Shown in pieces: positions 1 through 8,940 of a DNA stretch of 8,940 nt. How positions within the stretch are numbered: position 1 is the first letter of the stretch; each line of letters starts with the position of its first letter. A program made the translations under genes and the position numbers. The stretch lies in IMG/VR virus record IMGVR_UViG_2695420456_000028, positions 1-8,940 of that record, one strand, 5' to 3'. Under the pieces are notes generated by a model, which saw nothing but the letters and a program-made list of their open reading frames with translations, was not told the DNA's origin and ran no database searches. This stretch comes from a virus. Taxonomy: Duplodnaviria > Heunggongvirae > Uroviricota > Caudoviricetes.

Positions 1-501
1 TTAGTCTCCAGGATTCCCGGGGCGGTTCAGTAAGGGGGTATTTGTATTTATTGTCTTTTGTATATTGTCTTTTGTGTTTAGCTGACTTGGCTTATACCCA
101 TTAGCCGACTTGGCTAATGTTTTATTAGCTGTTTTAGCTAATGTTAAGCTGTCCTGGCTAATCCACTGAGAAACCACCTTGTTCACTCCGATTTTCACGC
201 CATCAGCAATGAGGAATTTACGCTCAATAAGCTGGCGCTTGGCAGCGCAAACATGAGTGTGATGAATACCTGTCATGGCTGCTATCTGCGTGTTTGTGAG
301 TCGATCCATCGGCTTATTGAATCCGTATGTCTTGCGCATGATAGCGAGCATCACCTTCAACTGCCGGACGGTTAAATCAGCCATCAGCAGACTGTCGGTA
401 ATCTCGTTAGCAACGCGCATGAAACCATCTTCGGTATCTGCCACGCGATGCTCCACGACCTCCAGTTGAGGCCTGTAATCAGCTAACTTAACGACGCCCA
501 T
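1..501 (-). CDS. O: Lambda O-like replication initiator, N-terminal iteron-binding part only (166 aa); stop codon at window bases 1-3
   Basis: Minus-strand ORF with ATG at 499-501 and AGGAG SD 6 nt upstream (rc of 502-515). Residues ADLTVRQLKVMLAIMRKTYGFNKPMDRLT resemble the N-terminal domain of lambda O as recalled. The 3' part of the ORF encodes repetitive LAKTANKTLAKSANG over the iteron array. Confidence 0.75.
   Translation of the reverse strand: MGVVKLADYRPQLEVVEHRVADTEDGFMRVANEITDSLLMADLTVRQLKVMLAIMRKTYGFNKPMDRLTNTQIAAMTGIHHTHVCAAKRQLIERKFLIADGVKIGVNKVVSQWISQDSLTLAKTANKTLAKSANGYKPSQLNTKDNIQKTINTNTPLLNRPGNPGD
36..78. repeat. AT-rich tract flanking the iterons, with 11-bp direct repeat TTGTCTTTTGT at 51-61 and 65-75; candidate DNA-unwinding element of the origin
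   Basis: Sequence composition and the direct repeat read directly; placement downstream of the iterons in the direction of O transcription matches the lambda ori layout. Confidence 0.45.
79..160. repeat. Origin-type iteron array: four ~15-bp imperfectly palindromic repeats of form TAGCY-N5-GGCTA, spaced ~23 bp
   Basis: Copies at 79-92 (TAGCTGACTTGGCT), 102-116 (TAGCCGACTTGGCTA), 126-140 (TAGCTGTTTTAGCTA) and 145-160 (TAAGCTGTCCTGGCTA), read directly. Position inside the O-like gene and an adjacent AT-rich tract mirror the lambda ori arrangement. Confidence 0.6.
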
Positions 502-649
502 GTTTCACTCCTGCTTTGGCTAGTCTGTAAACACCAACAAGGCGTTCTACGAACGCCCTGTTATTTGCTGCGGCTACCACTAATCCCTCAGGTGAATCAG
601 GGTGTCGAATCTCTTCTTTTTCCTGGTATTTCTTACGACGTTTTGTCAT
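488..649 (-). CDS. Hypothetical small basic protein (53 aa, MTKRRKKYQEKEEIRHPDSPEGLVVAAANNRAFVERLVGVYRLAKAGVKHGRR) between cII and O
   Basis: ATG at 647-649 (minus) with AGGAG SD 5 nt upstream; stop TAA at 488-490 overlaps the O start. Not in the supplied ORF track (below its size cut-off). No family recognised. Confidence 0.35.
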   Translation of the reverse strand: MTKRRKKYQEKEEIRHPDSPEGLVVAAANNRAFVERLVGVYRLAKAGVKHGRR

Positions 650-726
650 AATTACTCCTGTAGATTGATCCAGTCTTTCTACATCAGGCCTCGAAGAATT
701 CGCCGTTCTTCGGGGCTTTTTCTTTT
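650..726 (+). ncRNA. oop: Candidate OOP-like antisense RNA, antisense to the cII 3' end; 5' end not defined
   Basis: A plus-strand intrinsic terminator (688-726) sits inside the last codons of the minus-strand cII gene, with no plus-strand gene upstream. This matches the lambda OOP arrangement. Promoter not confidently placed (CATAAT at 647-652 is one possible -10). Confidence 0.35.
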
Positions 727-965
727 GTCAGGTAATCGGCAAGCCGCTTAGTCAATTCAGCCATTTCATCGTCTTCGATTCCGTATTCCAGAACAGCAAG
801 CATCATGCTTACCTGCGAGAAGAAACCATTCTTCCATCGGCTTACCTGATATTCAGGAACCCCCATTGCTCGAGCGAATGTCTTCTGCCCCATCAGTGCC
901 AGTTTGTTCAGCAAGGCCGACTCGATGCGAGCCGCTTTCTTGCTTTTAGTTGCAATAGTACCCAT
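684..965 (-). CDS. cII: CII-type transcriptional activator (93 aa)
   Basis: ATG at 963-965 (minus) with AAGGA SD. Motif RIESALLNKLA...SRWK...FSQVSMMLAVLEYGIEDDEMA parallels lambda CII (RIESALLNKIA...SRWKR...FSMLLAVLEWGVVDDDMA) as recalled. Position downstream of cro and nutR. Confidence 0.85.
   Translation of the reverse strand: MGTIATKSKKAARIESALLNKLALMGQKTFARAMGVPEYQVSRWKNGFFSQVSMMLAVLEYGIEDDEMAELTKRLADYLTKEKAPKNGEFFEA
688..726 (+). terminator. Intrinsic terminator on plus strand: stem GCCTCGAAGAA / TTCTTCGGGGC, loop TTCGCCG, then TTTTTCTTTT
   Basis: 11-bp stem with one G-U pair followed by a T-run, read directly; the minus strand has no T-run after the hairpin, so it is orientation-specific. 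Confidence 0.65.
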
Positions 966-972
966 AGATAAT
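940..972 (+). promoter_or_regulatory. Candidate pRE-type CII-dependent promoter: TTGC-N6-TTGC (940-943 and 950-953) with putative -10 GATAAT at 967-972
   Basis: TTGC direct repeats spaced 6 bp lie inside the first codons of cII on the opposite strand, the same geometry as lambda pRE. Transcription would run antisense through cro toward cI. Confidence 0.55.
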
Positions 973-1041
973 TTCCTTAATGATTAGATAGAGTTGGCTT
1001 CGCAAAGAAACGCAAAACCATAGAGATTTGTTTCTGGTAAT

Positions 1042-1073
1042 GCCCTTTTTCAGGGCGGGGATGTGTAAGAGCG
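1042..1073 (-). promoter_or_regulatory. nutR: nutR antitermination site: boxA CGCTCTTAC (rc of 1065-1073) and boxB GCCCTGAAAAAGGGC (rc of 1042-1056)
   Basis: boxB hairpin sequence equals lambda nutR boxB as recalled, and boxA matches the CGCTCTTA consensus. Located between cro and cII on the transcribed strand. Confidence 0.8.
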
Positions 1074-1081
1074 GGAATGTC

Positions 1082-1297
1082 TTAAGCGGCTTTGTGTTCC
1101 GGCGGGAACACGTCATCAAGACTGACTTTTGCGCCTAACTTGTTTAGGCACTCAACAAGAGCACGGCATGTTTTAAGGTCTGGGAAGCGACGACCAGATT
1201 CCCAATGTCCGATAGCTCCCTGTGTGCATCCAACTGCCTTAGCAAGTGTTGTTTGAGAGATATTCAGTGACTCTCGATATTTTCGTAGGTTGCTCAT
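1082..1297 (-). CDS. cro: Cro-type HTH repressor (71 aa, start at internal ATG MSNLRK...)
   Basis: GGAGGG SD 3-4 nt before the ATG at 1295-1297 (minus); HTH segment [21 protein letters not shown]. Divergent from cI. The track ORF extends 9 codons upstream without an SD. Confidence 0.8.
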
Positions 1298-1323
1298 ATG
1301 CCCTCCATAGTAACCATGAAACA

Positions 1324-1352
1324 ATAATACGATATGTACTTTTAGAATGCAA
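1324..1352 (-). promoter_or_regulatory. Candidate pR promoter for cro: -35 TTGCAT (rc of 1347-1352), 17-bp spacer, -10 TATTAT (rc of 1324-1329)
   Basis: Hexamers and spacing read directly on the minus strand; an operator-like site overlaps the spacer and -10. Confidence 0.6.
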
Positions 1353-1398
1353 GCAAAAATACATCTTGTGCATGGATGGTTTTAGTACAGAGCGTAAT
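1326..1398. promoter_or_regulatory. OR operator region: candidate 15-bp repressor sites at 1326-1340 (minus: AGTACATATCGTATT) and 1384-1398 (plus: AGTACAGAGCGTAAT), weaker middle site 1358-1372
   Basis: Sites share AGTACA-N-A-N-CGTA-Y-T with the site in pL; half-sites AGTAC and GTAYT are inverted repeats. A leaderless cI transcript is possible (putative pRM -10 TAATAA at 1395-1400). Confidence 0.5.
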
Positions 1399-1407
1399 AA
1401 TAAGGGT

Positions 1408-2067
1408 ATGAAAATGAAATGGTATGAACTGGCTAGATCCAGAATGAAAGAGCTCGGCATAACTCAAGAGAAGTTAGCTGAAGAGCTTGGTATGACGCAG
1501 GGTGGAATTGGTCACTGGTTGCGCGGATCTCGTCATCCATCTCTTGACGAGATTGGTGTGGTGTTTAAATACCTTGGTATTGATAACGTCTCATTCAACC
1601 ACGACGGTACATTTTCACCTGTTGGCGAATACTCATCTGCCCCCGTTAAAAAACAATATGAGTACCCTGTTTTTTCTCATGTTCAGGCAGGGATGTTCTC
1701 GCCTGAGCTTAGAACCTTTACCAAAGGTGATGCGGAGAGATGGGTCAGCACAACCAAAAAAGCCAGTGATTGTGCGTTTTGGCTTGAAGTTGAAGGTAAT
1801 TCCATGACCGCGCCAACAGGATCGAAGCCAAGCTTTCCTGACGGGATGTTAATTCTCGTTGACCCCGAGCAGGCTGTTGAGCCAGGTGATTTCTGCATAG
1901 CCAGACTTGGTGGTGACGAGTTTACCTTCAAGAAACTGATCAGGGATAGCGGTCAGGTGTTCCTACAGCCACTAAACCCGCAATATCCAATGATTCCATG
2001 CAATGATAGCTGTTCCGTAGTAGGGAAAGTTATCGCCAGCCAGTGGCCTGAAGAGACATTTAGTTAA
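1408..2067 (+). CDS. cI: CI-type prophage repressor, N-terminal HTH plus C-terminal LexA/S24-type autocleavage domain (219 aa)
   Basis: [24 protein letters not shown] nearly matches the Cro recognition helix. Ala-Gly site in HVQAGMF, catalytic Ser in EGNSM and Lys in FKKL fit the S24 peptidase layout. Start at 1408 chosen over the track start at 1246 (1414 also possible). Confidence 0.9.
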
Positions 2068-2098
2068 CAGCCTCACCACTCTAAAACACACAACAATA

Positions 2099-2127
2099 AC
2101 CCGACCTTAGCGTCGGGTTTTCTTTTT
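2099..2127 (+). terminator. Intrinsic terminator after cI: stem ACCCGAC / GTCGGGT, loop CTTAGC, then TTTTCTTTTT
   Basis: 7-bp GC-rich stem and T-run read directly, 32 nt after the cI stop. Confidence 0.7.
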
Positions 2128-2146
2128 CCAAAATATAAACCCATTA

Positions 2147-2221
2147 AATACAAAGCGTTATAAAAAAGTAGTTATATTTAGAACATTTTGTATTGACTCG
2201 ATAAAGTACAAATCGTACTAT
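2147..2221 (+). promoter_or_regulatory. pL promoter with OL operators: -35 TTGACT (2193-2198), 17-bp spacer, -10 TACTAT (2216-2221); sites at 2205-2219 (AGTACAAATCGTACT), 2180-2194 (weaker) and 2147-2161
   Basis: Promoter hexamers read directly. Downstream sequence CATCAGCAGGACGCACTGACCACCATGAAGGTGA matches the start of the lambda pL transcript as recalled. Operator sites share the OR consensus. Confidence 0.7.
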
Positions 2222-2261
2222 TTAGCCATCAGCAGGACGCACTGACCACCATGAAGGTGAG

Positions 2262-2291
2262 GCTCTTAAAAATTAAGCCCTGAAGAAGGGC
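2262..2291 (+). promoter_or_regulatory. nutL: nutL antitermination site: boxA GCTCTTAAA (2262-2270) and boxB GCCCTGAAGAAGGGC (2277-2291)
   Basis: boxB equals lambda nutL boxB as recalled; it lies between pL and N. Confidence 0.85.
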
Positions 2292-2489
2292 AGCATTCAA
2301 AGCAGAAGGCTTTGGGATTGGATGAATGAGCAGGCTTATGCTCGACCAATGTATAAACAGCGCTCATGGCAAGCAGTAACCAATCTGCGCCTCAAGACAG
2401 CGTCACTGGTAGTGCGGGCGCTCTAACCAGTAAGCCGGGGTTCAGCGCCGGCCATCCAATCACCAAAGCTAACTGACAGGAGAATCCAG

Positions 2490-2822
2490 ATGGATGCACA
2501 AACACGCCGCCGCGAACGTCGCGCAGAGAAACAGGCTCAATGGAAAGCAGCAAATCCCCTGTTGGTTGGGGTAAGCGCAAAACCAGTTAACCGCCCTATT
2601 CTCTCGCTGAATCGCAAACCGAAATCACGAGTAGAAAGCGCACTGAATCCGATAGACCTTACAGTGCTGGCTGAATACCACGAACAGATTGAAAGCAACC
2701 TGCAACGTATTGAGCGCAAGAATCAGCGCACATGGTACAGCAAGCCACGCAGTGAAATGGGTGTGACCTGTTCAGGCCGCCAGAAGCAACGCGGAAAATC
2801 AATTCCAGCTTATTACGATTGA
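2490..2822 (+). CDS. N: N transcription antiterminator (110 aa), lambda N-like
   Basis: AGGAG SD 7 nt upstream. N-terminal arginine-rich motif MDAQTRRRERRAEKQAQWKAAN and most of the remaining sequence match lambda N as recalled. Preceded by nutL. Confidence 0.9.
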   Translation: MDAQTRRRERRAEKQAQWKAANPLLVGVSAKPVNRPILSLNRKPKSRVESALNPIDLTVLAEYHEQIESNLQRIERKNQRTWYSKPRSEMGVTCSGRQKQRGKSIPAYYD

Positions 2823-2829
2823 GGTGGTC

Positions 2830-2967
2830 ATGCTCAAGAAAATCAAACGCCGACTTTACAAAGAAGGTAGATATTCATGCCAATTGCCAAAATGCGACAC
2901 AACAAAATGGAGTGTCGATGATTGGTGTAACTGGATAGATAGATACGGAACTTGGTGGGATAAATAA
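2830..2967 (+). CDS. Hypothetical small Cys/Trp-rich protein (45 aa, MLKKIKRRLYKEGRYSCQLPKCDTTKWSVDDWCNWIDRYGTWWDK)
   Basis: ATG 8 nt after the N stop, GAGGTG SD with short spacing; basic N-terminus and three Cys. Not in the ORF track (short). No family recognised. Confidence 0.3.
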   Translation: MLKKIKRRLYKEGRYSCQLPKCDTTKWSVDDWCNWIDRYGTWWDK

Positions 2968-3020
2968 CAGGTAACTTAAGCGTATTTACTTTCGCGGCAA
3001 ACCACATATTTGAGGTGAGA

Positions 3021-3095
3021 TATGGAAGAAGAATTTGAAGAGTTCGAAGAGCATCCGCAGGATGTGATGGAACAATACCAGGACTATCCGTATGA
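3021..3095 (+). CDS. Hypothetical 24-aa acidic peptide (MEEEFEEFEEHPQGCDGTIPGLSV), stop overlaps the ral start (ATGA)
   Basis: Strong GAGGTGA SD 4 nt upstream of the ATG at 3021; stop TGA 3093-3095 overlaps the ATG at 3092-3094 of the next ORF, which has no SD of its own. May act as a translational-coupling leader. Confidence 0.2.
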
Positions 3096-3292
3096 CTACG
3101 ACTATTGATACAAATCAATGGTGTGGACAATTCAAGCGATGCAATGGATGCAAGCTGCAATCGGAATACATGGTTAAGCCTGAAGAAATGTTTCCTGTAA
3201 TGGAAGATGGGAAATATGTCGATAAATGGGCAATACGAACGACGGCAATGATTGCCAGAGAACTTGGTAAACAGAATAACAAGGCTGCCTGA
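3092..3292 (+). CDS. ral: Ral-like restriction-alleviation protein (66 aa)
   Basis: Sequence MTTTIDTNQWCGQFKRCNGCKLQSEYMVKPEEMFPVMEDGKYVDKWAIRTTAMIARELGKQNNKAA matches my recollection of lambda Ral in length and sequence, and sits downstream of N as in lambda. Identity rests on memory and needs alignment. Confidence 0.6.
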   Translation: MTTTIDTNQWCGQFKRCNGCKLQSEYMVKPEEMFPVMEDGKYVDKWAIRTTAMIARELGKQNNKAA

Positions 3293-3309
3293 TGGTGGCC
3301 TTTATTTTT
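3281..3309 (+). terminator. Terminator-like hairpin AAGGCTGCC-TGAT-GGTGGCCTT followed by TATTTTT; the ral stop lies in its loop
   Basis: 9-bp stem with two G-U pairs and a T-rich tail, read directly; the motif is related to the hairpin at 8289-8312. Confidence 0.5.
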
Positions 3310-3331
3310 GGCATAAACAACAGAGGATAAC

Positions 3332-3628
3332 ATGGAATTTAAAGGTACTGAAGGCAAGTGGGAAATAATGATGGATGGCGATGAGATTAAAATAATCCAG
3401 GCAGACTCACTTGAAAATGGCGCAGGCTGGCGTTCGTATATTGCAATCTGTGAGGAAGTTCAATGTATTGAAGATGCCAATCTAATAGCGGCAGCACCTG
3501 ACCTTCTCGAAGCACTTCAGTTATTACTTAAGCAATCCAAAAATAGAACAACGACAACATATCCAGAATGGTATGGAGCTGTTAATAAAGGTCTTGCAGC
3601 AATCAGCAAGGCTCTGGGAGGTGAATGA
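3332..3628 (+). CDS. Hypothetical protein (98 aa), first gene of a coupled pair
   Basis: GAGGA SD before the ATG at 3332; stop overlaps the next start (ATGATG at 3625-3630). No family recognised; motif ANLIAAAPDLLEALQLL. Confidence 0.6.
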   Translation: MEFKGTEGKWEIMMDGDEIKIIQADSLENGAGWRSYIAICEEVQCIEDANLIAAAPDLLEALQLLLKQSKNRTTTTYPEWYGAVNKGLAAISKALGGE

Positions 3629-3828
3629 TGTGCGAGTTTTATGAAGCAGATATCAAACGCCCAGAAATGGCAAGTGATGCGACATTACGTGATTACTTCG
3701 CGGCAAAGGCTATGCAAGCAATGATTAGCAATCCATCGATTATCGATAATGATTCTGATGGAGTTGTTAATTATGCAGCAAGCGCTGCATATAAGTTTGC
3801 AGACGCAATGCTCAAAGCTCGCGAATAA
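3625..3828 (+). CDS. Hypothetical protein (67 aa), second gene of the coupled pair
   Basis: GGAGGTG SD directly upstream; start at 3625 or 3628. No family recognised. Confidence 0.6.
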   Translation: MMCEFYEADIKRPEMASDATLRDYFAAKAMQAMISNPSIIDNDSDGVVNYAASAAYKFADAMLKARE

Positions 3829-3833
3829 GCACT

Positions 3834-3861
3834 GTGTATTCATTCCAACGAGTGAATACAC
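3834..3861. other. Perfect 9-bp inverted repeat GTGTATTCA ... TGAATACAC; as RNA a ~13-bp stem with a 4-nt loop
   Basis: Read directly, 6 nt after the stop of the 67-aa ORF; no T-run follows. Could be an RNA processing or stability hairpin, or a dimeric protein-binding site. Confidence 0.5.
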
Positions 3862-3924
3862 GGAGCAATGTCGCTCGTAACTAAACAGGAGCCGACTTGT
3901 TCTGATTATTGGAAATCTTCTTTG

Positions 3925-3948
3925 CCCTCCGATGTGGGGGGCCTTTTT
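3925..3948 (+). terminator. Possible intrinsic terminator: CCCTCC-GATGT-GGGGGG then CCTTTTT
   Basis: GC-rich hairpin with one G-U pair and a T5 run, read directly; it lies in the non-coding gap upstream of the cIII-like gene. Confidence 0.35.
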
Positions 3949-4014
3949 ATATGCATACCAATAACGCTTCACTCGAGGCGTTTTCGTTATGCAATCAAAC
4001 AGAAGGAGCATCCT

Positions 4015-4185
4015 ATGCAACAGTTCACTATTGCAGGGGCGGCATCGGTTCGCCCTTTCAACCCGATTTTATCGGTACAGCATTCACGAAAAAACATTTT
4101 AACCGGAGCAGACTTTAAACAACCAAGAATGAAAAGTTTGCTCGAAAAGCTTTGGGATATTTTGAAACAACAAGGCCGTCCATGA
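4015..4185 (+). CDS. cIII: CIII-like small protein (56 aa), candidate FtsH-inhibitor type
   Basis: AAGGAG SD 6 nt upstream. N-terminus MQQFTIAG and C-terminal KSLLEKLWDILKQQGRP resemble lambda CIII (MQYAIAG ... KRLIDILNQPGVP) as recalled. The track ORF start at 3868 has no SD and spans a terminator-like hairpin. Confidence 0.5.
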   Translation: MQQFTIAGAASVRPFNPILSVQHSRKNILTGADFKQPRMKSLLEKLWDILKQQGRP

Positions 4186-4352
4186 GTTTTACAGATAACT
4201 GGTCAGACGAAGAATTCATTCGTCAGATGAAAGAATTAATCGGTAACGAAGGAGATATTCATGTCACTTGCAACCACAGTGAAGGAGAGCAAGTTACAGA
4301 GACGCATGTACACGCAGCAGGCGTTAATGTATCGCCAGAAGGGAGATCGTGA
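4182..4352 (+). CDS. Hypothetical small protein (56 aa, MSFTDNWSDEEFIRQMKELIGNEGDIH...), coupled to cIII via ATGA overlap
   Basis: Start ATG overlaps the cIII stop; the N-terminal half looks protein-like and the C-terminal half is low complexity. It overlaps the next ORF in another frame. Confidence 0.3.
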   Translation: MSFTDNWSDEEFIRQMKELIGNEGDIHVTCNHSEGEQVTETHVHAAGVNVSPEGRS

Positions 4353-4431
4353 AGGTGTTCGCGTATTTTTAAATGCGGCAAAGACTGAAGTATTAAATCA
4401 GCGTTATTTCCTTGGGCCATGTCCATTCTGA
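4261..4431 (+). CDS. Hypothetical small protein (56 aa, MSLATTVKESKLQRRMYTQQALMYRQKGDREGVRVFLNAAKTEVLNQRYFLGPCPF)
   Basis: GGAG SD 6 nt upstream of the ATG at 4261; ends 9 nt before the recombinase start. In the position lambda uses for kil, but no sequence identity is claimed. Confidence 0.35.
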   Translation: MSLATTVKESKLQRRMYTQQALMYRQKGDREGVRVFLNAAKTEVLNQRYFLGPCPF

Positions 4432-4439
4432 GGTGAATT

Positions 4440-5147
4440 ATGGATTTGAATAAATTCGATGAGCCATTCAGCCCTGAAGATATCGAATGGCGAATACAGC
4501 AAAGCGGTAAAACACGCGATGGCAAAGTGTGGGCTATGGTGCTGGCTTATGTCACGAACCGGGCAATCATGAAACGCCTGGACGATGTTTGCGGCAAAGC
4601 AGGATGGCGCAATGAATACCGCGATATTCCCAACAACGGCGGCGTTGAATGCGGCATATCGATAAAGATTGATTCCGAATGGGTAACCAAATGGGATGCT
4701 GCTGAAAACACGCAGGTAGAAGCCGTCAAAGGTGGTCGTTCCGGTGCAATGAAGCGCGCTGCCGTTCAGTGGGGAATCGGTCGGTATCTGTATAACCTTG
4801 AGGAAGGTTTCGCACAAACATCTCTCGATAAAAAGCAGGGGTGGCACAGGGCAAAACTGAAGGATGGAACAGGATTTTACTGGCTACCTCCATCGCTGCC
4901 GGGATGGGCAATCCCAGCATCAGATAACAAACCATCACCAGAAAATACCAACCAGAAATCTCCATCGGTTGACTGCGAACAAATCCTGAAAGACTTCAGC
5001 GATTATGCATCAACAGAAACTGACAAGAAAAAACTCATAGAACGTTATCAGCATGACTGGCAATTAATGGCTGGCAATGAGGATGCGCAGGCTAAATGCG
5101 TTCAGGTAATGAACATCAGAGTTAACGAACTAAAACAGGCGGCATAA
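4440..5147 (+). CDS. Rad52/Sak-family single-strand annealing protein (235 aa)
   Basis: GAGGTGA SD; motif AMKRAAVQWGIGRYLY matches the conserved GIGRYLY signature of Rad52-type phage recombinases as recalled. An ssb gene follows immediately. Confidence 0.8.
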   Translation: MDLNKFDEPFSPEDIEWRIQQSGKTRDGKVWAMVLAYVTNRAIMKRLDDVCGKAGWRNEYRDIPNNGGVECGISIKIDSEWVTKWDAAENTQVEAVKGGRSGAMKRAAVQWGIGRYLYNLEEGFAQTSLDKKQGWHRAKLKDGTGFYWLPPSLPGWAIPASDNKPSPENTNQKSPSVDCEQILKDFSDYASTETDKKKLIERYQHDWQLMAGNEDAQAKCVQVMNIRVNELKQAA

Positions 5148-5654
5148 ATGGCAAGCAGAGGCGTAAATAAGGTGATTATCCTTGGTCGGGTAGGACAAGA
5201 CCCGGAAGTTCGATACTCACCATCAGGAACAGCGTTCGCTAACCTGACAATAGCCACGTCAGAACAATGGCGAGATAAAAATACTGGCGAGCAAAAGGAA
5301 TTGACTGAATGGCATCGTGTTGCTGTATCCGGGAAACTGGCTGAGGTCGTGGGGCAGTATGTGAAAAAAGGTGATCAGATTTATTTCGAGGGAATGCTGA
5401 GAACCAGAAAGTGGAAAGACCAGTCAGGGCAAGACCGTTACACAACCGAGGTTCATGTCGGAATTAATGGCGTGATGCAAATGCTTGGCGGCATTGGCGA
5501 CAGCAAACAACAAGCAGCCAGCAGGCAATCACAGAAGCCACAGCAGCAATCATCACCAGCACAACACAACGAACCTCCGATGGATTTTGACGACGATATA
5601 CCCTTTGCACCAGTAACTCTCCCCTTCCCTCGTCACGCTATTCACGCAATTTAA
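5148..5654 (+). CDS. ssb: Single-stranded DNA-binding protein (168 aa) with internal DFDDDIPF motif plus a 15-residue C-terminal extension
   Basis: OB-fold N-terminus ([18 protein letters not shown] ... TEWHRV), Gln/Pro-rich linker and [11 protein letters not shown] motif; the ORF continues [15 protein letters not shown] before TAA at 5652-5654. Confidence 0.9.
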
Positions 5655-5667
5655 TCAGGAGAAAATC

Positions 5668-5964
5668 ATGCCAGCGCCTCTGTATGGTGCGGATGACCCG
5701 CGCCGCTGTTCCGGCAATTCCGTATCGGAGGTGCTGGATAAATTCAGAAAAAACTACGATCGGATAATGTCTCTACCGCAGGAAACGAAAGATGAAAAGG
5801 AATTTCGCCATTGTATATGGCTTGCAGAGAAAGAAGAACGAGAGCGAATTTACCAGACATCAATCCGACCATTCCGCAAAGCCACATATACCCACTTCCC
5901 TGAATATATCGACCCGCGCCTGCGTAATTACCGCTCACGCTATGGCGCTATCAGTAATGACTGA
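5668..5964 (+). CDS. Hypothetical protein (98 aa)
   Basis: AGGAG SD 6 nt upstream of the ATG at 5668; no family recognised. Confidence 0.55.
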
Positions 5965-5974
5965 GGAATTTACC

Positions 5975-6139
5975 ATGAGAGGACTTGCATACAATCCCGG
6001 CATTCTTCCGGCAGAAATGATTATTCGCCAACGCGTAAAGCCAATGCCATCGAGAGAGGAATTGCTTAAGAGAAATAGTTTCTGTTCTGTTAATGACAAC
6101 AAATATCTGAATGCAATGTGGCGGAGTGGGAAAAAATGA
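5975..6139 (+). CDS. Hypothetical small protein (54 aa)
   Basis: GAGGA SD 7 nt upstream of the ATG at 5975; stop overlaps the next start (ATGA at 6136-6139). The track ORF 5792-6139 extends upstream across the previous gene without an SD. Confidence 0.4.
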
Positions 6140-6453
6140 CAATCACAAAACAACGTGTAGAAGAAATCATATCCCGCATTGAAATGTATGGGCATGGTGC
6201 AGGGTATACCGCTGACGAGGTTTATGACCTGGCTGTACTGGCGCTGAATTTATCAAATATCGCAAAACTCAAGCGATACGAGCTTGATATGGATGGTTGT
6301 GACTCGTTCGGTCAGGATTGTGGCGCTGACATGACTGAAGATTCTGATGGCGATTATGTCCTGTTTGATGACGTGGTTAAGTTGTTTGAGTTTGATACAA
6401 CCACTCAGAAGATAGAAAGCCCAGCAAAGGAGGCAACCAGTGAGCGAAATTAA
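6136..6453 (+). CDS. Hypothetical acidic protein (105 aa)
   Basis: ATG at 6136 is coupled to the upstream stop; the track start at 6118 is a GTG. The 3' end overlaps the next gene by 14 nt. Confidence 0.55.
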
Positions 6454-7090
6454 TTACCAGGCACTGCGTGAGGCGGCAGAGCGTGCAATTCCGGCAATGG
6501 AACGCCTGTTAATGTTGCCAGTTGATGATGATTTGTTAAGTGAACAGGAACTTAAAGATTACGGTGTGGATATTGATGCGCTCAACGCCTTCAAATTTCT
6601 GGCCGGACCAGAAACCGTGCTGGCACTACTGGATGAATGGGAAAGAAACCAGCAATACATCAAACGCCGCGACCAGGAGAACGAGGATATTGCGCTTACG
6701 GTTGGGAAGCTGCGCGTTGAGCTGGAAGGCAAAGACAGCAAAATAGCCAATCTTACCGCCGAACGCGATGCTCTTCGTGAAGGTGAGATGGGCGACGCTA
6801 GGCATAGCAACACACGGGCCGCAGCTGATATCTACTTCCAACTGGTCGAGGAATGCGAAATTCCTGCTGGCGGATCTCTGGTCGAGTACGTTGACGATAT
6901 GCGCGAGAAGCTGGAAGCCGCAGAGAAGCGGATTGCTGAACTGGAAGCGCGGGAAATATCGCTCCCAGAACGTAGCAGCATGCTTCATCGAACAGATTTT
7001 CACGAGGATTACCAAACGGTAATGGCATACAAAGTTTCTGAAGTCATCGATGCAATCCGCGCTACTGGCATTCGCATCAAAGGAGAGTGA
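6440..7090 (+). CDS. Ea22-like coiled-coil protein (216 aa), GTG start
   Basis: AAGGAGG SD 6 nt before the GTG at 6440. Segment LLDEWERNQQYIKRRDQENEDIALTVGKLRVELE resembles lambdoid Ea22-family proteins as recalled (moderate certainty). Confidence 0.65.
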   Translation: MSEINYQALREAAERAIPAMERLLMLPVDDDLLSEQELKDYGVDIDALNAFKFLAGPETVLALLDEWERNQQYIKRRDQENEDIALTVGKLRVELEGKDSKIANLTAERDALREGEMGDARHSNTRAAADIYFQLVEECEIPAGGSLVEYVDDMREKLEAAEKRIAELEAREISLPERSSMLHRTDFHEDYQTVMAYKVSEVIDAIRATGIRIKGE

Positions 7091-7091
7091 T

Positions 7092-7949
7092 ATGAGCACT
7101 ATCACTAAAGAACGTATCGAATTGTTCATTAAATCCCCGCTTGAAAACGGGCTTACTCGTGGCGAACAAATGGAACTGGCACGAATTGCGCTGGCATCGC
7201 TGGAAGCAGAGCCTGTGGCGTATATCATTCAGGACTCTGACGCTCGTAGTCGTGGAGAGAAAGGCATCCTTCGCTATTTCGCAAATATCAGCGACGAGGA
7301 TATAAACGAGTACGAAATTACCGTAACTCCGCTTTACGCCGCCCCTCCAGAGACGGTATCTGTGCCTGATGCGATGGAAATGGATGATGACTTTGACAGC
7401 GCGTTTGAACACGGAAAAGCTGTCGGCTGGAACGCCTATCGCGCAGCCATGCTTCAGTCCGGAAACTTTCGGGAAAACAAGAATTCGTCAACCAATAATT
7501 TTCGTGAAATCGCGGAAACGTCAACCAACTATCCGGTAATTCCTAGTGAGGTGTTGTCCGCAATCCAGAAGGTTGCCAAGATTCGTGCCGATTTCGATGA
7601 TTTTGACGGTGACAGGCGAGGTATCTGTGATTGTCTGGATGAGGCTGAGCAAGAGCTTATCGTTACCATTAACAAATATGCCAGTCAGTTGGCAGCAGAA
7701 CCTATCGCGCCTAATGACGTTCGAGAGCAGACAGCCATTCCGCAAGTTCCGGTAACTCCGGATGGTTGGATAAGCTGTAGTGAGCGAATGCCGAAAGGGT
7801 ATGCTGATGTGTTAGTGACCGATGGCGAGCATGTCGAGGTTAAATGGTGGGATGAATCTGGGTATTGGAATAGTTGGACGGAACTTAACTCAGATATCTT
7901 TGCCGATGAAATAACTCACTGGATGCCGCTACCAGAGCCTCCACTTTGA
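7092..7949 (+). CDS. DUF551-domain protein (285 aa)
   Basis: AAGGAGAG SD; the C-terminal segment ending THWMPLPEPPL is typical of DUF551 proteins of lambdoid prophages as recalled. Start at 7092 rather than the track start 7050. Confidence 0.7.
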   Translation: MSTITKERIELFIKSPLENGLTRGEQMELARIALASLEAEPVAYIIQDSDARSRGEKGILRYFANISDEDINEYEITVTPLYAAPPETVSVPDAMEMDDDFDSAFEHGKAVGWNAYRAAMLQSGNFRENKNSSTNNFREIAETSTNYPVIPSEVLSAIQKVAKIRADFDDFDGDRRGICDCLDEAEQELIVTINKYASQLAAEPIAPNDVREQTAIPQVPVTPDGWISCSERMPKGYADVLVTDGEHVEVKWWDESGYWNSWTELNSDIFADEITHWMPLPEPPL

Positions 7950-8045
7950 AAGCGAAGCTTATACATATCTTTTACATCAGCAATCTATTGTTAATCTCCA
8001 ATCAATGTTACGTTGTCATCTCACTCATGCTTTGGAGGTAGTGAT

Positions 8046-8225
8046 ATGTCTTGTCCAAAATGCGGTTCTGGAAATATTGCAAAAGAAAAAACAATGCGTG
8101 GATGGTCTGATGATTATGTGTGCTGCGATTGCGGATACAACGACTCTAAAGACGCATTTGGAGAGCGTGGTAAAAACGAGTTTGTCAAAATTAATAAAGA
8201 ACGCGAAGGCAACGAAAAAAGCTAA
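8046..8225 (+). CDS. Small zinc-ribbon protein (59 aa, CPKC ... CCDCG)
   Basis: GGAGG SD 7 nt upstream of the ATG at 8046; four-Cys arrangement C-x2-C ... C-x-C. The track start at 8013 has no SD. Confidence 0.55.
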   Translation: MSCPKCGSGNIAKEKTMRGWSDDYVCCDCGYNDSKDAFGERGKNEFVKINKEREGNEKS

Positions 8226-8288
8226 TTTATTTATTCATATATGAAAACAATGTAACCAATATTCGAATTGAAGAACTGAAAGAACACC

Positions 8289-8312
8289 AAGCCGCCTGAT
8301 GGCGGTTTTTTT
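8289..8312 (+). terminator. Intrinsic terminator: AAGCCGCC-TGAT-GGCGGTT then TTTTTTT
   Basis: GC-rich stem and T7 run read directly; the SD of the next ORF follows immediately. Confidence 0.65.
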
Positions 8313-8326
8313 ATTGGAGACAAGAA

Positions 8327-8671
8327 ATGTCAGATTTGGCTATGAAGGTTTTGAAATGGCAATCGACTGGCGATGTCGGCATCAGTAGCGCAACTCTTGC
8401 CTCAATCGCATGTGGACTGAAAAAGAATATCTATGGTCATCACTTCGGCGCTCCACATGACGCAGCCGATTTCCGGCGATGCGTTGCACTTGTTGAGCAG
8501 ATTCCAGAAATCAGAGATTCATTCGACAAGGTTGCAAAGCGCGTTCCGGCATTCAAAGGAATCCTCAACGAATGGGATTCACTCGTTGCTCTGTTGAAGT
8601 CTGAAATGAAGATACACGAAAACAAAGCACCAGAGACTTACAGAAGAATTAGCGAGCTACGCAAGGACTAA
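8327..8671 (+). CDS. Hypothetical protein (114 aa)
   Basis: GGAG SD 7 nt upstream of the ATG at 8327; bracketed by terminator-like hairpins. No family recognised. Confidence 0.6.
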   Translation: MSDLAMKVLKWQSTGDVGISSATLASIACGLKKNIYGHHFGAPHDAADFRRCVALVEQIPEIRDSFDKVAKRVPAFKGILNEWDSLVALLKSEMKIHENKAPETYRRISELRKD

Positions 8672-8710
8672 CGCCTCACACTCGATGAGGCCTGTACATA
8701 TCTGATAGAT

Positions 8711-8733
8711 CCGCTATATGGCGGTTTCTTTTT
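8711..8733 (+). terminator. Weak terminator-like hairpin CCGC-TATATG-GCGG followed by TTTCTTTTT
   Basis: Short 4-bp stem and T-rich tail read directly; a second hairpin GCCTCA-N7-TGAGGC lies at 8673-8691. Confidence 0.35.
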
Positions 8734-8748
8734 GCCTGGAGAATTAAG

Positions 8749-8940
8749 ATGACCGATACCAGCCTGATTCCTGAGAAAGAAGTGATGAACAAGCTCGGTG
8801 TTTCATCACGTCAGACAATCTGGAACTATACCAAACGGCACGGATTTCCGAAGCCAGTCAGAACCCACCCCAAATCATACCTTCGTGAAGCTGTTGAGGG
8901 GTGGATTCTTAACGGTGGCGTTAATCAGAAATGCTCCTGA
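8749..8940 (+). CDS. xis: AlpA/Xis-family DNA-binding protein, candidate excisionase (63 aa)
   Basis: GGAG SD 7 nt upstream. Segment KEVMNKLGVSSRQTIWNYTKRHGFPKP resembles AlpA/excisionase-type regulators as recalled; it is the last gene of the pL operon, so an integrase is expected just beyond the window. Confidence 0.7.
   Translation: MTDTSLIPEKEVMNKLGVSSRQTIWNYTKRHGFPKPVRTHPKSYLREAVEGWILNGGVNQKCS

Follow-up and report, generated by a model that had tools for sequence, protein, structure and literature searches.

A conserved peptide beyond the acidic tip of SSB proteins from Enterobacterales mobile elements, and a putative endonuclease insertion site at its boundary

Described SSBs and the gene in the window

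The C-terminal peptide of bacterial SSB (SSB-Ct) is a docking hub for more than 12 genome-maintenance enzymes and an antibacterial drug target. To our knowledge, the tip is treated as a universal hub that depends on a free protein end. In E. coli SSB it forms the very end of the chain, and partner proteins bind the free carboxylate there; an arginine of RecO anchors the carboxyl end of the SSB-Ct (PMC3152348). SSB carrying a C-terminal GFP loses ExoI binding, and SSB blocked at its C-terminus acts as a dominant negative when present in high copy (PMC7293020). The block in that precedent is bulky GFP rather than a peptide of 15 residues.

Mobile elements carry SSBs of several types. The lambdoid SSB-1 genes of phages Sf6 and ES18 (PMC12315714) belong to the same family as the gene studied here and take the same place in the Rec module, between the annealase gene and abc2. 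They show 77-98% nucleotide identity to relatives of our gene. The passages of that survey found by term search describe SSB-1 as experimentally unstudied and make no mention of an extension. A putative endonuclease gene directly downstream makes the SSB-1 proteins of Sf6 and ES18 stop at IPF. The SSB of phage HK620 (HkaK) is likewise a phage SSB with partner-specific C-terminal residues, its NDYPPF tip recruiting Sak4 (PMC5928155), but it is of a distant, unrelated SSB type with the functional motif at the true C-terminus and no extension. Conjugative plasmids likewise hold mobile-element copies of a bacterial-type SSB (the leading-region ssb of F-like plasmids), and the SSB of the IncT plasmid Rts1 is tailed. 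Most plasmid SSBs in a sample spread over the 5,000 best-scoring records align no further than residue 153, and the one inspected, from a Serratia plasmid, ends at IPF.

The DNA analysed here, referred to as the window, is a stretch of 8,940 nucleotides from a virus of the Caudoviricetes (IMG/VR record IMGVR_UViG_2695420456_000028, positions 1 to 8,940). Its SSB gene (5148-5654, + strand; 168 codons plus stop) is an uninterrupted, endonuclease-free allele. It follows a gene for a Rad52/Rad22-type single-strand annealing protein (4440-5147, +; Pfam PF04098, E = 5.1e-26), the TAA stop of which (5145-5147) abuts the SSB start codon, so that TAAATG at 5145-5150 points to translational coupling. 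A spacer with the Shine-Dalgarno sequence TCAGGAGAAAATC (5655-5667, +) leads to abc2, the gene for anti-RecBCD protein 2 (5668-5964, +; PF11043, E = 1.3e-61).

Pfam PF00436 matches SSB residues 6-104 (E = 1.6e-36), and TIGR00621 scores 166.9 bits against a cutoff of 53.95. The PDB entries 7f2n and 1eqq match residues 1-153 (E ~1e-58); 7f2n is the closest entry, with ∼70% identity in the OB fold. The protein shares the OB fold and linker architecture of E. coli SSB (PDB 1EQQ/4MZ9). Residues 1-112 (5148-5483) form the OB-fold DNA-binding and tetramerisation domain, predicted by AlphaFold as a beta-barrel at pLDDT ~85. They are followed by a Q/P-rich, intrinsically disordered linker of low complexity (residues 113-142; 5484-5573; pLDDT ~30), which is rich in indels in the alignment, and by the acidic tip (residues 143-153; 5574-5606), 11 residues ending in DDDIPF and identical to E. 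coli SSB residues 168-178. The tip is not the extreme C-terminus, and its Phe therefore lacks the free alpha-carboxylate that partner proteins use in canonical SSBs. A conserved extension of 15 residues (154-168; 5607-5651), predicted to be disordered, opens with GCA (Ala154, 5607-5609) and runs to the TAA stop at 5652-5654. An earlier sequence-only reading had placed ORF, tip, GCA codon, extension and stop at exactly these positions. All PDB and NCBIfam matches to the SSB stop at residue 153, the Phe of IPF, hence the last 15 residues lie past the canonical end; none of the solved SSB structures or the NCBIfam/TIGR models matched has an extension past this Phe. In the AlphaFold monomer model (108 sequences) residues 115-168 stand at pLDDT ~30, which gives no support for a tail that docks back on the OB fold of its own chain.

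Spread of the extension and selection on it

The 168-residue SSBs of phages HK75 and mEp235 are identical to that of the window. The SSB of epsilon34 has an identical tail, and the same tail is found in ECP1 and CP-1639. The tip/tail junction of the window is present in 204 of 5,426 complete E. coli genomes, and tail DNA is fused to SSB in ∼93 of the 120 IMG/VR contigs that hold tail DNA. When SSBs were clustered at 90% identity, ∼110 of the best 120 clusters carried the 15-residue extension with conservative variation. There are 33 unique tail variants, each of 15 residues (16 in the ICE/Rts1 branch), with no stops and no indels. They follow the pattern [AS]-P-[VI]-[TG]-L-[PQ]-[FY]-P-[RK]-H-x-[IV]-[HY]-x-[IL]-COOH, in which the extreme C-terminus, [AT]-I-[HY]-x-[IL], is the most conserved stretch. 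Diverged tails occur in Tatumella, Mixta, Xenorhabdus and Providencia, in ICE-type loci and in the IncT plasmid Rts1, the SSB of which ends …NDDIPF-AGLGASFGKHTIHAIC. A phrog_743-type SSB and a divergent SSB core also bear tip plus tail. A search for related loci in genome contigs gave at least 8 clearly extended loci, with chromosomal SSBs predominating among the matches listed. An exhaustive phmmer search with a 31-residue tip-plus-tail query is no true census: it gave just 14 hits, fragments for the most part, since full-length SSBs are covered through representatives of clusters at 50% identity. Neither the SSB extension nor an ssb-targeting endonuclease was found described in a literature search that took in few of the subscription journals.

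These counts bear on the suggestion that the extension results from a sequencing or assembly error, or from a private loss of the stop codon after DDDIPF. Close relatives ending in IPF-stop, which had been named as the sign of such an error, do exist (Huey, ∼98% identical, Sf6 and ES18). Their existence does not imply an error or private mutation in the window, as these alleles are derived by endonuclease insertion (see below). The same 168-residue protein is encoded by independently sequenced phages, the 204 complete E. coli genomes and many metagenomes, and a change from TAA or TAG to GCA needs several base changes. The tail varies yet persists across genera. The census refutes this explanation, and we give it practically no credence. 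The extension is probably a genuine, ancient and selected C-terminal peptide that defines a mobile-element SSB clade in Enterobacterales, of which the window carries an intact allele. Members of the clade come from phages of the lambdoid and P22-like kinds, from ICE-type elements and from at least one plasmid of the IncT group.

We estimated the selection acting on the segments of ssb. The tail gave a pN/pS of 0.42-0.43 (∼0.17-0.24 after correction), a signal that comes from the deeper comparisons (13 genes), in which synonymous sites are saturated. Five disjoint pairs gave Sd = 40.7 and Nd = 49.3 for the tail (binomial P = 3e-5). In the deeper comparisons the tail DNA has diverged to a pS of ∼0.64-0.71 with peptide pattern and length retained. 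The pN/pS was 0.60-0.72 for the linker, 0.19-0.21 for the OB fold and 0.06 for the internal tip, which is the most constrained segment of the gene. By these substitution patterns the tail is under purifying selection.

The picture is different at close range. Among the E. coli and Salmonella phages, the 45 nt of the tail are near-invariant at an ssb divergence of 10-23%. There are no differences in these 45 nt among the window, epsilon34 (∼90% identity in ssb) and CP-1639 (∼77%), whereas 3-9 positions differ in the tip codons next to them. Since the 45 nt stay invariant while ssb diverges, this local conservation reflects recent exchange and not selection on the peptide. The tail could then be a neutral passenger, kept as DNA because it serves as a module boundary in homologous exchange or belongs to the endonuclease target, with an inert peptide. 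The tail joins either SSB or HNH upstream to either abc2 or an exonuclease downstream, and all four combinations were found; elsewhere among phages this tail precedes another spacer, GGACTTAC, and a DnaQ-like exonuclease gene. Phages with a tail-less SSB (Sf6, Huey, Bas106 and ES18) are viable, thus the tail is dispensable at least under some conditions. However, an inert peptide is hard to square with a pattern and length that outlast the divergence of the DNA, with 33 variants free of stops and indels, with tip plus tail on other SSB cores, and with the decay of the tail away from SSB in L221. A passenger tail is thus quite improbable in our judgement. RNA structure was rejected as the cause of the local DNA invariance (fold of 5580-5680, z = +1.56). 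Programmed frameshifting or alternative termination at CCC-TTT-G (5601-5607) was likewise rejected: the heptamer is out of the X-XXY-YYZ register, and homologues have CCA TTT, CCT TTT or CCG TTC at these codons. A +1 shift there would yield ...IP-LHQ*.

A selected peptide might be the place at which the Rad52-type annealase of the same phage docks, a pairing that the sequence-only reading had proposed. The two genes are adjacent and translationally coupled, and SSB C-termini are used by annealases elsewhere, as by HK620 Sak4 with its SSB (PMC5928155) and, reportedly, by Red-beta with the SSB-Ct (PMC6393309). Near-identical tails, however, stand beside Rad52, RecT, ERF and AAA_24/Sak4 annealases, and tails are also found in topoisomerase + DUF3577 ICE-type loci and in plasmid Rts1, with no annealase there. 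Huey and Sf6, on the other hand, pair the same Rad52-type annealase with a tail-less SSB. Judged from these gene neighbourhoods the tail is independent of the Rad52-type recombinase; the proposed specific pairing is not borne out, and a dedicated annealase dock is very unlikely. The broader idea of a phage strategy fared better, as a tail that is conserved and under purifying selection is no accident.

A putative endonuclease gene between tip and tail

The tail-less alleles were compared with the window. In Huey, Sf6 and Bas106 the SSB ends DIPF-stop, and a putative endonuclease gene lies exactly between the Phe codon and the tail. The inserted gene supplies the stop, so that the SSB ends with the canonical IPF-COOH, and its own ORF reads out through the captured tail codons; its last 45 nt are identical to the tail of the window. 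The SSB of ES18 also ends IPF-stop, but the HNH gene there is a different one and is not followed by any remnant of the tail. Window and Huey have no mismatches in 431 nt of ssb (5148-5578) and 8 mismatches within the next 25 nt (5579-5603). The 468-nt endonuclease gene of Huey lies at the insertion point, between 5606 and 5607 of the window, and is followed by 1 mismatch (5608) and none until 5694. The region 5579-5609 (+) of the window is therefore taken from this comparison as the empty insertion site. The 25 nt to the left of the insertion point form a patch that differs in endonuclease-carrying alleles, and such clustered substitutions are consistent with a co-conversion tract or a cleavage-immune target. 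Presence and absence at one precise site in otherwise near-identical genomes was seen both for window vs. Huey and for ECP1 vs. Sf6. Junctions of ssb with HNH were found in 99 + 10 E. coli genomes, and the insert-bearing and insert-free states are both common. Because the relatives ending at DIPF carry the insertion, the window represents the uninterrupted allele. On this comparison of alleles, the IPF-stop alleles of Huey, Sf6 and ES18 are derived, with an endonuclease gene inserted at the tip/tail boundary.

The opposite polarity was also considered, in which the tail is native to the endonuclease ORF and was fused to SSB by deletion of the SSB stop and most of the endonuclease gene. This would account for the exact match between the window tail and the final 45 nt of the endonuclease gene in Sf6, Huey and Bas106, and SSB-endonuclease deletion chimeras do exist (P0016 and P0017). 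However, endonuclease homologues at 62-78% identity end just past ...KPIYPE with unrelated residues and no tail, and both the family core and the PHROG profile (phrog_2340, ‘endonuclease’) end before the tail. The tail is the sole low-confidence part of the endonuclease structure model, being disordered there, and in L221 the endonuclease-linked remnant is frameshifted, which indicates that selection acts on the SSB version. Endonuclease-linked tails show a single E. coli/Salmonella sequence type, whereas diverged SSB tails are found in genera and element types without a nearby endonuclease gene. A relic of the endonuclease is therefore a highly improbable origin for the tail, and insertion into a tailed ssb is the reading that we retain.

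The inserted gene has the invariant residues C-x2-C...HH-x-DY...W-x-C-x3-H-x3-H, and a beta-beta-alpha unit is predicted at residues 106-132 (pLDDT 90.9). Fold matches in BFVD were EndoVII and HNHc proteins (E = 2.5e-6 to 1e-3). Sequence searches of Pfam, NCBIfam and PDB gave no significant match, and the best PDB fold match, PacI, was weak (E = 0.43). The gene is thus a putative HNH/EndoVII-fold endonuclease, an assignment drawn from PHROG and BFVD fold matches only. Its relatives always stand 10-15 nt behind a short ssb, irrespective of the annealase, and the family was found here solely at the 3′ end of ssb. In its presence/absence polymorphism at one site, the accompanying substitution patch and the small predicted beta-beta-alpha metal-finger core, the insert resembles free-standing homing endonucleases (T4 seg/mob; HNH/His-Me finger). 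It differs from T4 seg/mob in that it sits inside a coding sequence, truncates the host protein to its canonical form and borrows the last 14-15 ssb codons and the stop. We regard it as a putative homing endonuclease, one that is not recognised by Pfam or PDB searches.

Possible consequences of an internal tip

Given the RecO contact (PMC3152348) and the GFP-blocked SSB (PMC7293020), a change in partner interactions upon internalisation of the tip, as suggested in the sequence-only reading, would be expected. The most likely effect is that the tail caps the free carboxylate of the tip Phe and offers a different C-terminus. The host partners ExoI, RecO, RecQ, PriA and chi anchor the alpha-carboxylate of the terminal Phe, and a longer chain would then give weaker or no recruitment of these proteins to ssDNA coated by the element's SSB. 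Recombination and transfer intermediates of the element may in this way be shielded from host nucleases and from loading of the RecFOR type. The new end, basic and hydrophobic ([RK]-H-x-I-[HY]-x-[IL]-COOH), may be offered to another factor, probably one of the host since the tail is independent of annealase type. Gain or loss of the endonuclease gene would toggle the SSB between capped and canonical forms. We tentatively favour this role of the tail as a cap and partner switch, which has about as much against it as for it.

The internal tip, at a pN/pS of 0.06, is hard to reconcile with a tip that is permanently disabled. Its constraint leaves room for removal of the tail, for a bipartite motif or for carboxylate-independent partners. 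Removal is a component of a further explanation, in which the tail is a turnover or processing signal, either a C-terminal degron or a pro-peptide clipped to expose IPF-COOH. The tip conservation is easiest to explain if the tip is eventually exposed, and the tail is most conserved at its extreme C-terminus. Given the dominant-negative effect of such a protein at high copy (PMC7293020), a limit on the amount of blocked SSB would also be reasonable. The endonuclease tolerates the tail too, and a degron would be of use on that protein as well. MuA-type C-motif 2, a ClpX signal, has a short non-polar C-terminus preceded by basic residues and directs ClpXP-dependent turnover, and the ...R-H-A-I-H-A-I-COOH end of the tail presumably resembles it. 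Against these points, no protease site at F|AP is known, and the decay of the endonuclease-linked copy argues against a generally useful tag. A degron or pro-peptide is on balance unlikely, and the cap and partner switch remains our tentative choice.

A beta-clamp-binding motif (QL[SD]LF / QLxLxL) was considered at P-V-T-L-P-F and rejected. The motif is a penta- or hexapeptide that keeps Gln in its first position and Leu in its fourth. The tails have Pro or Tyr at position 1 and never Gln, and those of Xenorhabdus and the ICE/Rts1 branch show K, Y or A at position 4.

We suggest, as a tentative proposal that may well need revision, that tip and cap form a previously undescribed transferable module, widespread in the SSBs of Enterobacterales phages, ICEs and plasmids. 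In it a conserved 15-residue peptide would bury the SSB-Ct, give a new C-terminal docking or turnover signal and rewire the hub, so that ssDNA of the element is handled unlike host ssDNA; a homing HNH-family endonuclease at the tip/cap boundary would restore the canonical form. A selected family with an internal tip may be a natural way to switch off or re-address the SSB hub, or else some partners may read an internal tip. Switching of the hub would bear on how phages, ICEs and plasmids protect ssDNA from ExoI, RecJ, RecQ and RecFOR and escape being sensed by SOS or defence. For recombineering the tail may matter where phage SSBs are co-expressed, as compatibility between annealase and SSB tail limits portability. 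Annotation pipelines label the tailed proteins simply as ‘ssb’ and either leave the inserted endonuclease gene as a ‘hypothetical protein’ or omit it. The precise insertion of the endonuclease gene provides a clean natural experiment in near-isogenic phages, HK75 or mEp235 vs. Huey.

The C-terminal extension of the window SSB

The gene for the SSB (single-stranded-DNA-binding protein) lies at 5148-5654 (+) and encodes 168 residues, with a TAA stop at 5652-5654. By family and structure matches the product is a standard bacterial-type SSB: it matched Pfam PF00436 (E=1.6e-36), scored well over the TIGR00621 cutoff, and its nearest solved structures are enterobacterial SSBs (E about 1e-58). The TIGR00621 and PDB matches all end at residue 153 of the query, which is the Phe of IPF, and no PDB chain matched the last 15 residues. 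The 11-residue acidic tip, ending in DDDIPF, was located at 5574-5606 (+) and is followed by the GCA codon of Ala154 (5607-5609, +), the first of the tail, confirming the extension noticed in the sequence-only reading. Fold, linker and tip are like those of the bacterial SSB family, whereas the tip lacks the terminal position that the field takes as defining for its function.

The window is an immunity and early-left region of lambdoid type that carries O, cII, a cro-like gene, cI, N and ral, followed by an Arf-like gene, the Rad52-type annealase (4440-5147), SSB, Abc2 (5668-5964), an Ea22-like gene, DUF551 and an excisionase-like gene. The lambda-type N antiterminator (2490-2822; PF11438 N36 motif, E=1.6e-26), the restriction-alleviation gene ral (3092-3292; phrog_1055) and the small Arf-like ORF upstream of the annealase (4152-4352; phrog_2123) make up an ordinary lambdoid early-left operon. 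The annealase stop abuts the SSB start (TAAATG, 5145-5150), as it does in HK75, mEp235, epsilon34, Sf6 and metagenomic loci; such abutting codons would imply that the Rad52-type annealase and SSB are translationally coupled.

The SSBs of HK75 and mEp235 are identical to the window SSB residue for residue. In epsilon34 (about 90% nucleotide identity), ECP1 and CP-1639 (both about 77%), the SSB bodies differ and the tail is unchanged. A 141-nt query spanning tip, tail and abc2 start (at least 80% coverage) detected the junction in 204 of 5,426 complete E. coli genomes. The alternative of a lost stop codon or a sequencing error was refuted by this count and by the identical proteins of HK75 and mEp235. 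Among the best 120 90%-identity clusters nearest the window SSB in a collection of 5.8 billion proteins, about 110 continue beyond [IV]PF, always by 15 residues. These extensions fall into 33 distinct variants, one being SPVGLQYGKHRVYAL, and come from hosts such as Klebsiella, Citrobacter, Enterobacter, Kluyvera, Salmonella, Pluralibacter and Phytobacter. More diverged tails came from one-genome-per-species contigs, with variants from Tatumella (APIGLQHPAHFIYSI), Mixta (AYIGLQYPSHAIHSI) and Xenorhabdus (APIGKQYPNHTIYVI). Another is shared by Providencia and the IncT conjugative plasmid Rts1 (AGLGASFGKHTIHAIC), and ICE-type loci with topoisomerase and DUF3577 carry LGFGYGVCRKAIYAIS and IGFGYDCSRVAIHAL. 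Among the matches listed from one-genome-per-species contigs, 70 of 80 SSBs end at IPF; most of these look like chromosomal copies.

An exhaustive search with the 31-residue tip and tail alone returned additional variants. Tip and tail are found on the divergent SSB core of protein P0174 (161 aa; phrog_44 match, no Pfam SSB match), as DDIPF-APFGLQYSSHAIHSL, and on a phrog_743-type SSB fragment (P0166, 118 aa), which suggests that they may move between SSB types as a module. In a common variant from a Salmonella cluster of 588 sequences (P0041, 165 aa), the tail is cut to 12 residues and lacks the conserved [HY]-x-[IL] end; this natural partial-tail allele could be informative experimentally.

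Probable nuclease genes at the tip/tail boundary and around ssb

The ssb gene of phage Huey is identical to that of the window over all 431 nt of 5148-5578, and eight substitutions are packed into 5579-5603. After 5603 Huey reads TTT-TAA and, beyond a spacer of 15 nt, has a gene of 155 codons (L005:1478-1945) before abc2; the final 45 nt of this gene equal window 5610-5654. Sf6 (gp27/gp26; gp26 at L004:1984-2463) and Bas106 (L009:1484-1963) have a Huey-like arrangement on a different SSB background. Sf6 gp26 is a putative HNH/EndoVII-fold gene that sits as an insert at the boundary between ssb tip and tail. That it reads out through captured SSB tail codons accounts for its old GenBank note, "14 contiguous amino acids identical to E. 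coli SSB". Each of the two alleles is common among complete E. coli genomes, with 204 fused junctions against 99 Sf6-type and 10 Huey-type ssb|endonuclease junctions. In IMG/VR, about 93 contigs have the tail DNA at the end of an SSB ORF and about 27 at the end of an endonuclease ORF, with abc2 or a DnaQ-like exonuclease downstream; all four upstream/downstream combinations are present.

We considered whether the tail belongs to SSB or to the inserted gene. The invariant core of the inserted protein (C-x2-C...HH-x-DY...W-x-C-x3-H-x3-H) ends at H130. Its AlphaFold model (pLDDT 90.9; beta-beta-alpha unit at 106-132) is of low confidence only in the tail, and the PHROG family profile ends before it. 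Homologues with 62-78% identity end a few residues past KPIYPE with unrelated sequences. For three tail-less homologues five loci were examined; at every one the gene lies 10-15 nt behind a short ssb with IPF-stop, with ERF, AAA_24 or Rad52 as the annealase. One of these loci, L221, retains recognisable tail DNA (35 of 41 aligned bases), which carries a 2-nt insertion and now reads SITPYPSLATQYTHSK. These results show that the tail is native to SSB and that the inserted gene captured it, a setting in which it decays.

The inserted protein is putatively assigned to the HNH/EndoVII superfamily from its motif, from a PHROG family labelled "endonuclease" and from fold matches in BFVD (E 2.5e-6 to 1e-3); searches of Pfam, NCBIfam and PDB by sequence and PDB by fold gave nothing significant. 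The precise insertion, adjoining substitution patch and strict single-target association are hallmarks of a free-standing homing endonuclease gene. At its ssb 3' end ES18 carries another HNH gene (gp47, L008:2010-2531), which resembles T7 gene 7.7 and has no remnant of the tail behind it; at two other loci a PF13392 HNH_3 gene (L223:1577-2044; L225:1510-2034) is wedged between annealase and ssb. The ssb flanks are a hot spot for nuclease genes. Deletion chimeras are also present in E. coli genomes. In two proteins whose annotation says only SSB (P0016, 178 aa; P0017, 139 aa), the N-terminal part comes from SSB and the C-terminal half from the endonuclease; P0162 (120 aa) has the linker, tip and tail of SSB behind an N-terminus that seems unrelated and may be Ea22-like. 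All three are likely non-functional products of illegitimate recombination at this hot spot.

Selection on the tail and its possible roles

Thirteen tail-bearing genes were codon-aligned, and synonymous and nonsynonymous differences were counted by the Nei-Gojobori method. The pN/pS values were 0.19-0.21 for the OB fold, 0.60-0.72 for the disordered linker, 0.06 for the acidic tip and 0.42-0.43 for the tail (about 0.17-0.24 after Jukes-Cantor correction). Five disjoint pairs gave 40.7 synonymous vs. 49.3 nonsynonymous differences in the tail (neutral synonymous share 0.255; binomial P 3e-5). Selection acts on the tail peptide, with the caveats of saturated synonymous sites and a small sample (13 genes). 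No RNA structure signal was found at the tail (z = +1.56). The 45 nt are practically invariant in E. coli, Salmonella and Shigella phages though ssb differs by 10-23%; at this shallow level invariance reflects recent exchange, not peptide selection.

The position pattern is [AS]-P-[VI]-[TG]-L-[PQ]-[FY]-P-[RK]-H-x-[IV]-[HY]-x-[IL], and in distant variants the extreme C-terminus is the most persistent part. In the AlphaFold model of SSB (108 homologues), the OB fold is confident, and from residue 115 onward pLDDT is about 30; the tail therefore behaves like a flexibly tethered short linear motif. Within it, T-L-P-F-P (5616-5630) forms a second, degenerate hydrophobic-Pro-aromatic element (cf. 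D-I-P-F, 5595-5606), its Leu five residues beyond the Phe of IPF, with variants GLPY, GLQY and GLQF. It might stem from an ancient duplication of the tip or be a further pocket-binding element.

In published structures and biochemistry an arginine of partner proteins, e.g., RecO R132 (PMC3152348), grips the terminal carboxyl of the SSB tip, and an SSB with GFP fused to its C-terminus is reported to lose ExoI binding (PMC7293020); the 15-residue extension should therefore weaken or block canonical docking. Altered partner interactions, as proposed from the sequence, are plausible and strengthened by tail conservation; the specific link to a Rad52-type recombinase is not supported. Similar tails accompany Rad52, RecT, ERF and Sak4/AAA_24 annealases and occur on ICE and plasmid SSBs, and the tail is therefore not a handle for one phage recombinase. 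It either acts in its own right or addresses something that Enterobacterales hosts share. We tentatively prefer a model of the tail as cap and partner switch, in which the element's SSB would cover the element's ssDNA but recruit no host nucleases or mediators, and the tail would offer a new, basic-hydrophobic C-terminal end. The chief problem for this model is that the tip, though internal, is still the most constrained segment of the gene; this fits equally well with removal of the tail from SSB, a bipartite tip and tail motif, or a tail serving as turnover signal.

A recent survey, the most detailed one of lambdoid Rec modules, names such proteins "SSB-1", experimentally unstudied, and its passages on SSB-1 do not mention the extension (PMC12315714). 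Within incomplete literature coverage, no description was found of the tail or of an ssb-targeted endonuclease gene, and the tail is apparently an undescribed variant of the known bacterial SSB family. Viable phages without the SSB tail show that it is dispensable.
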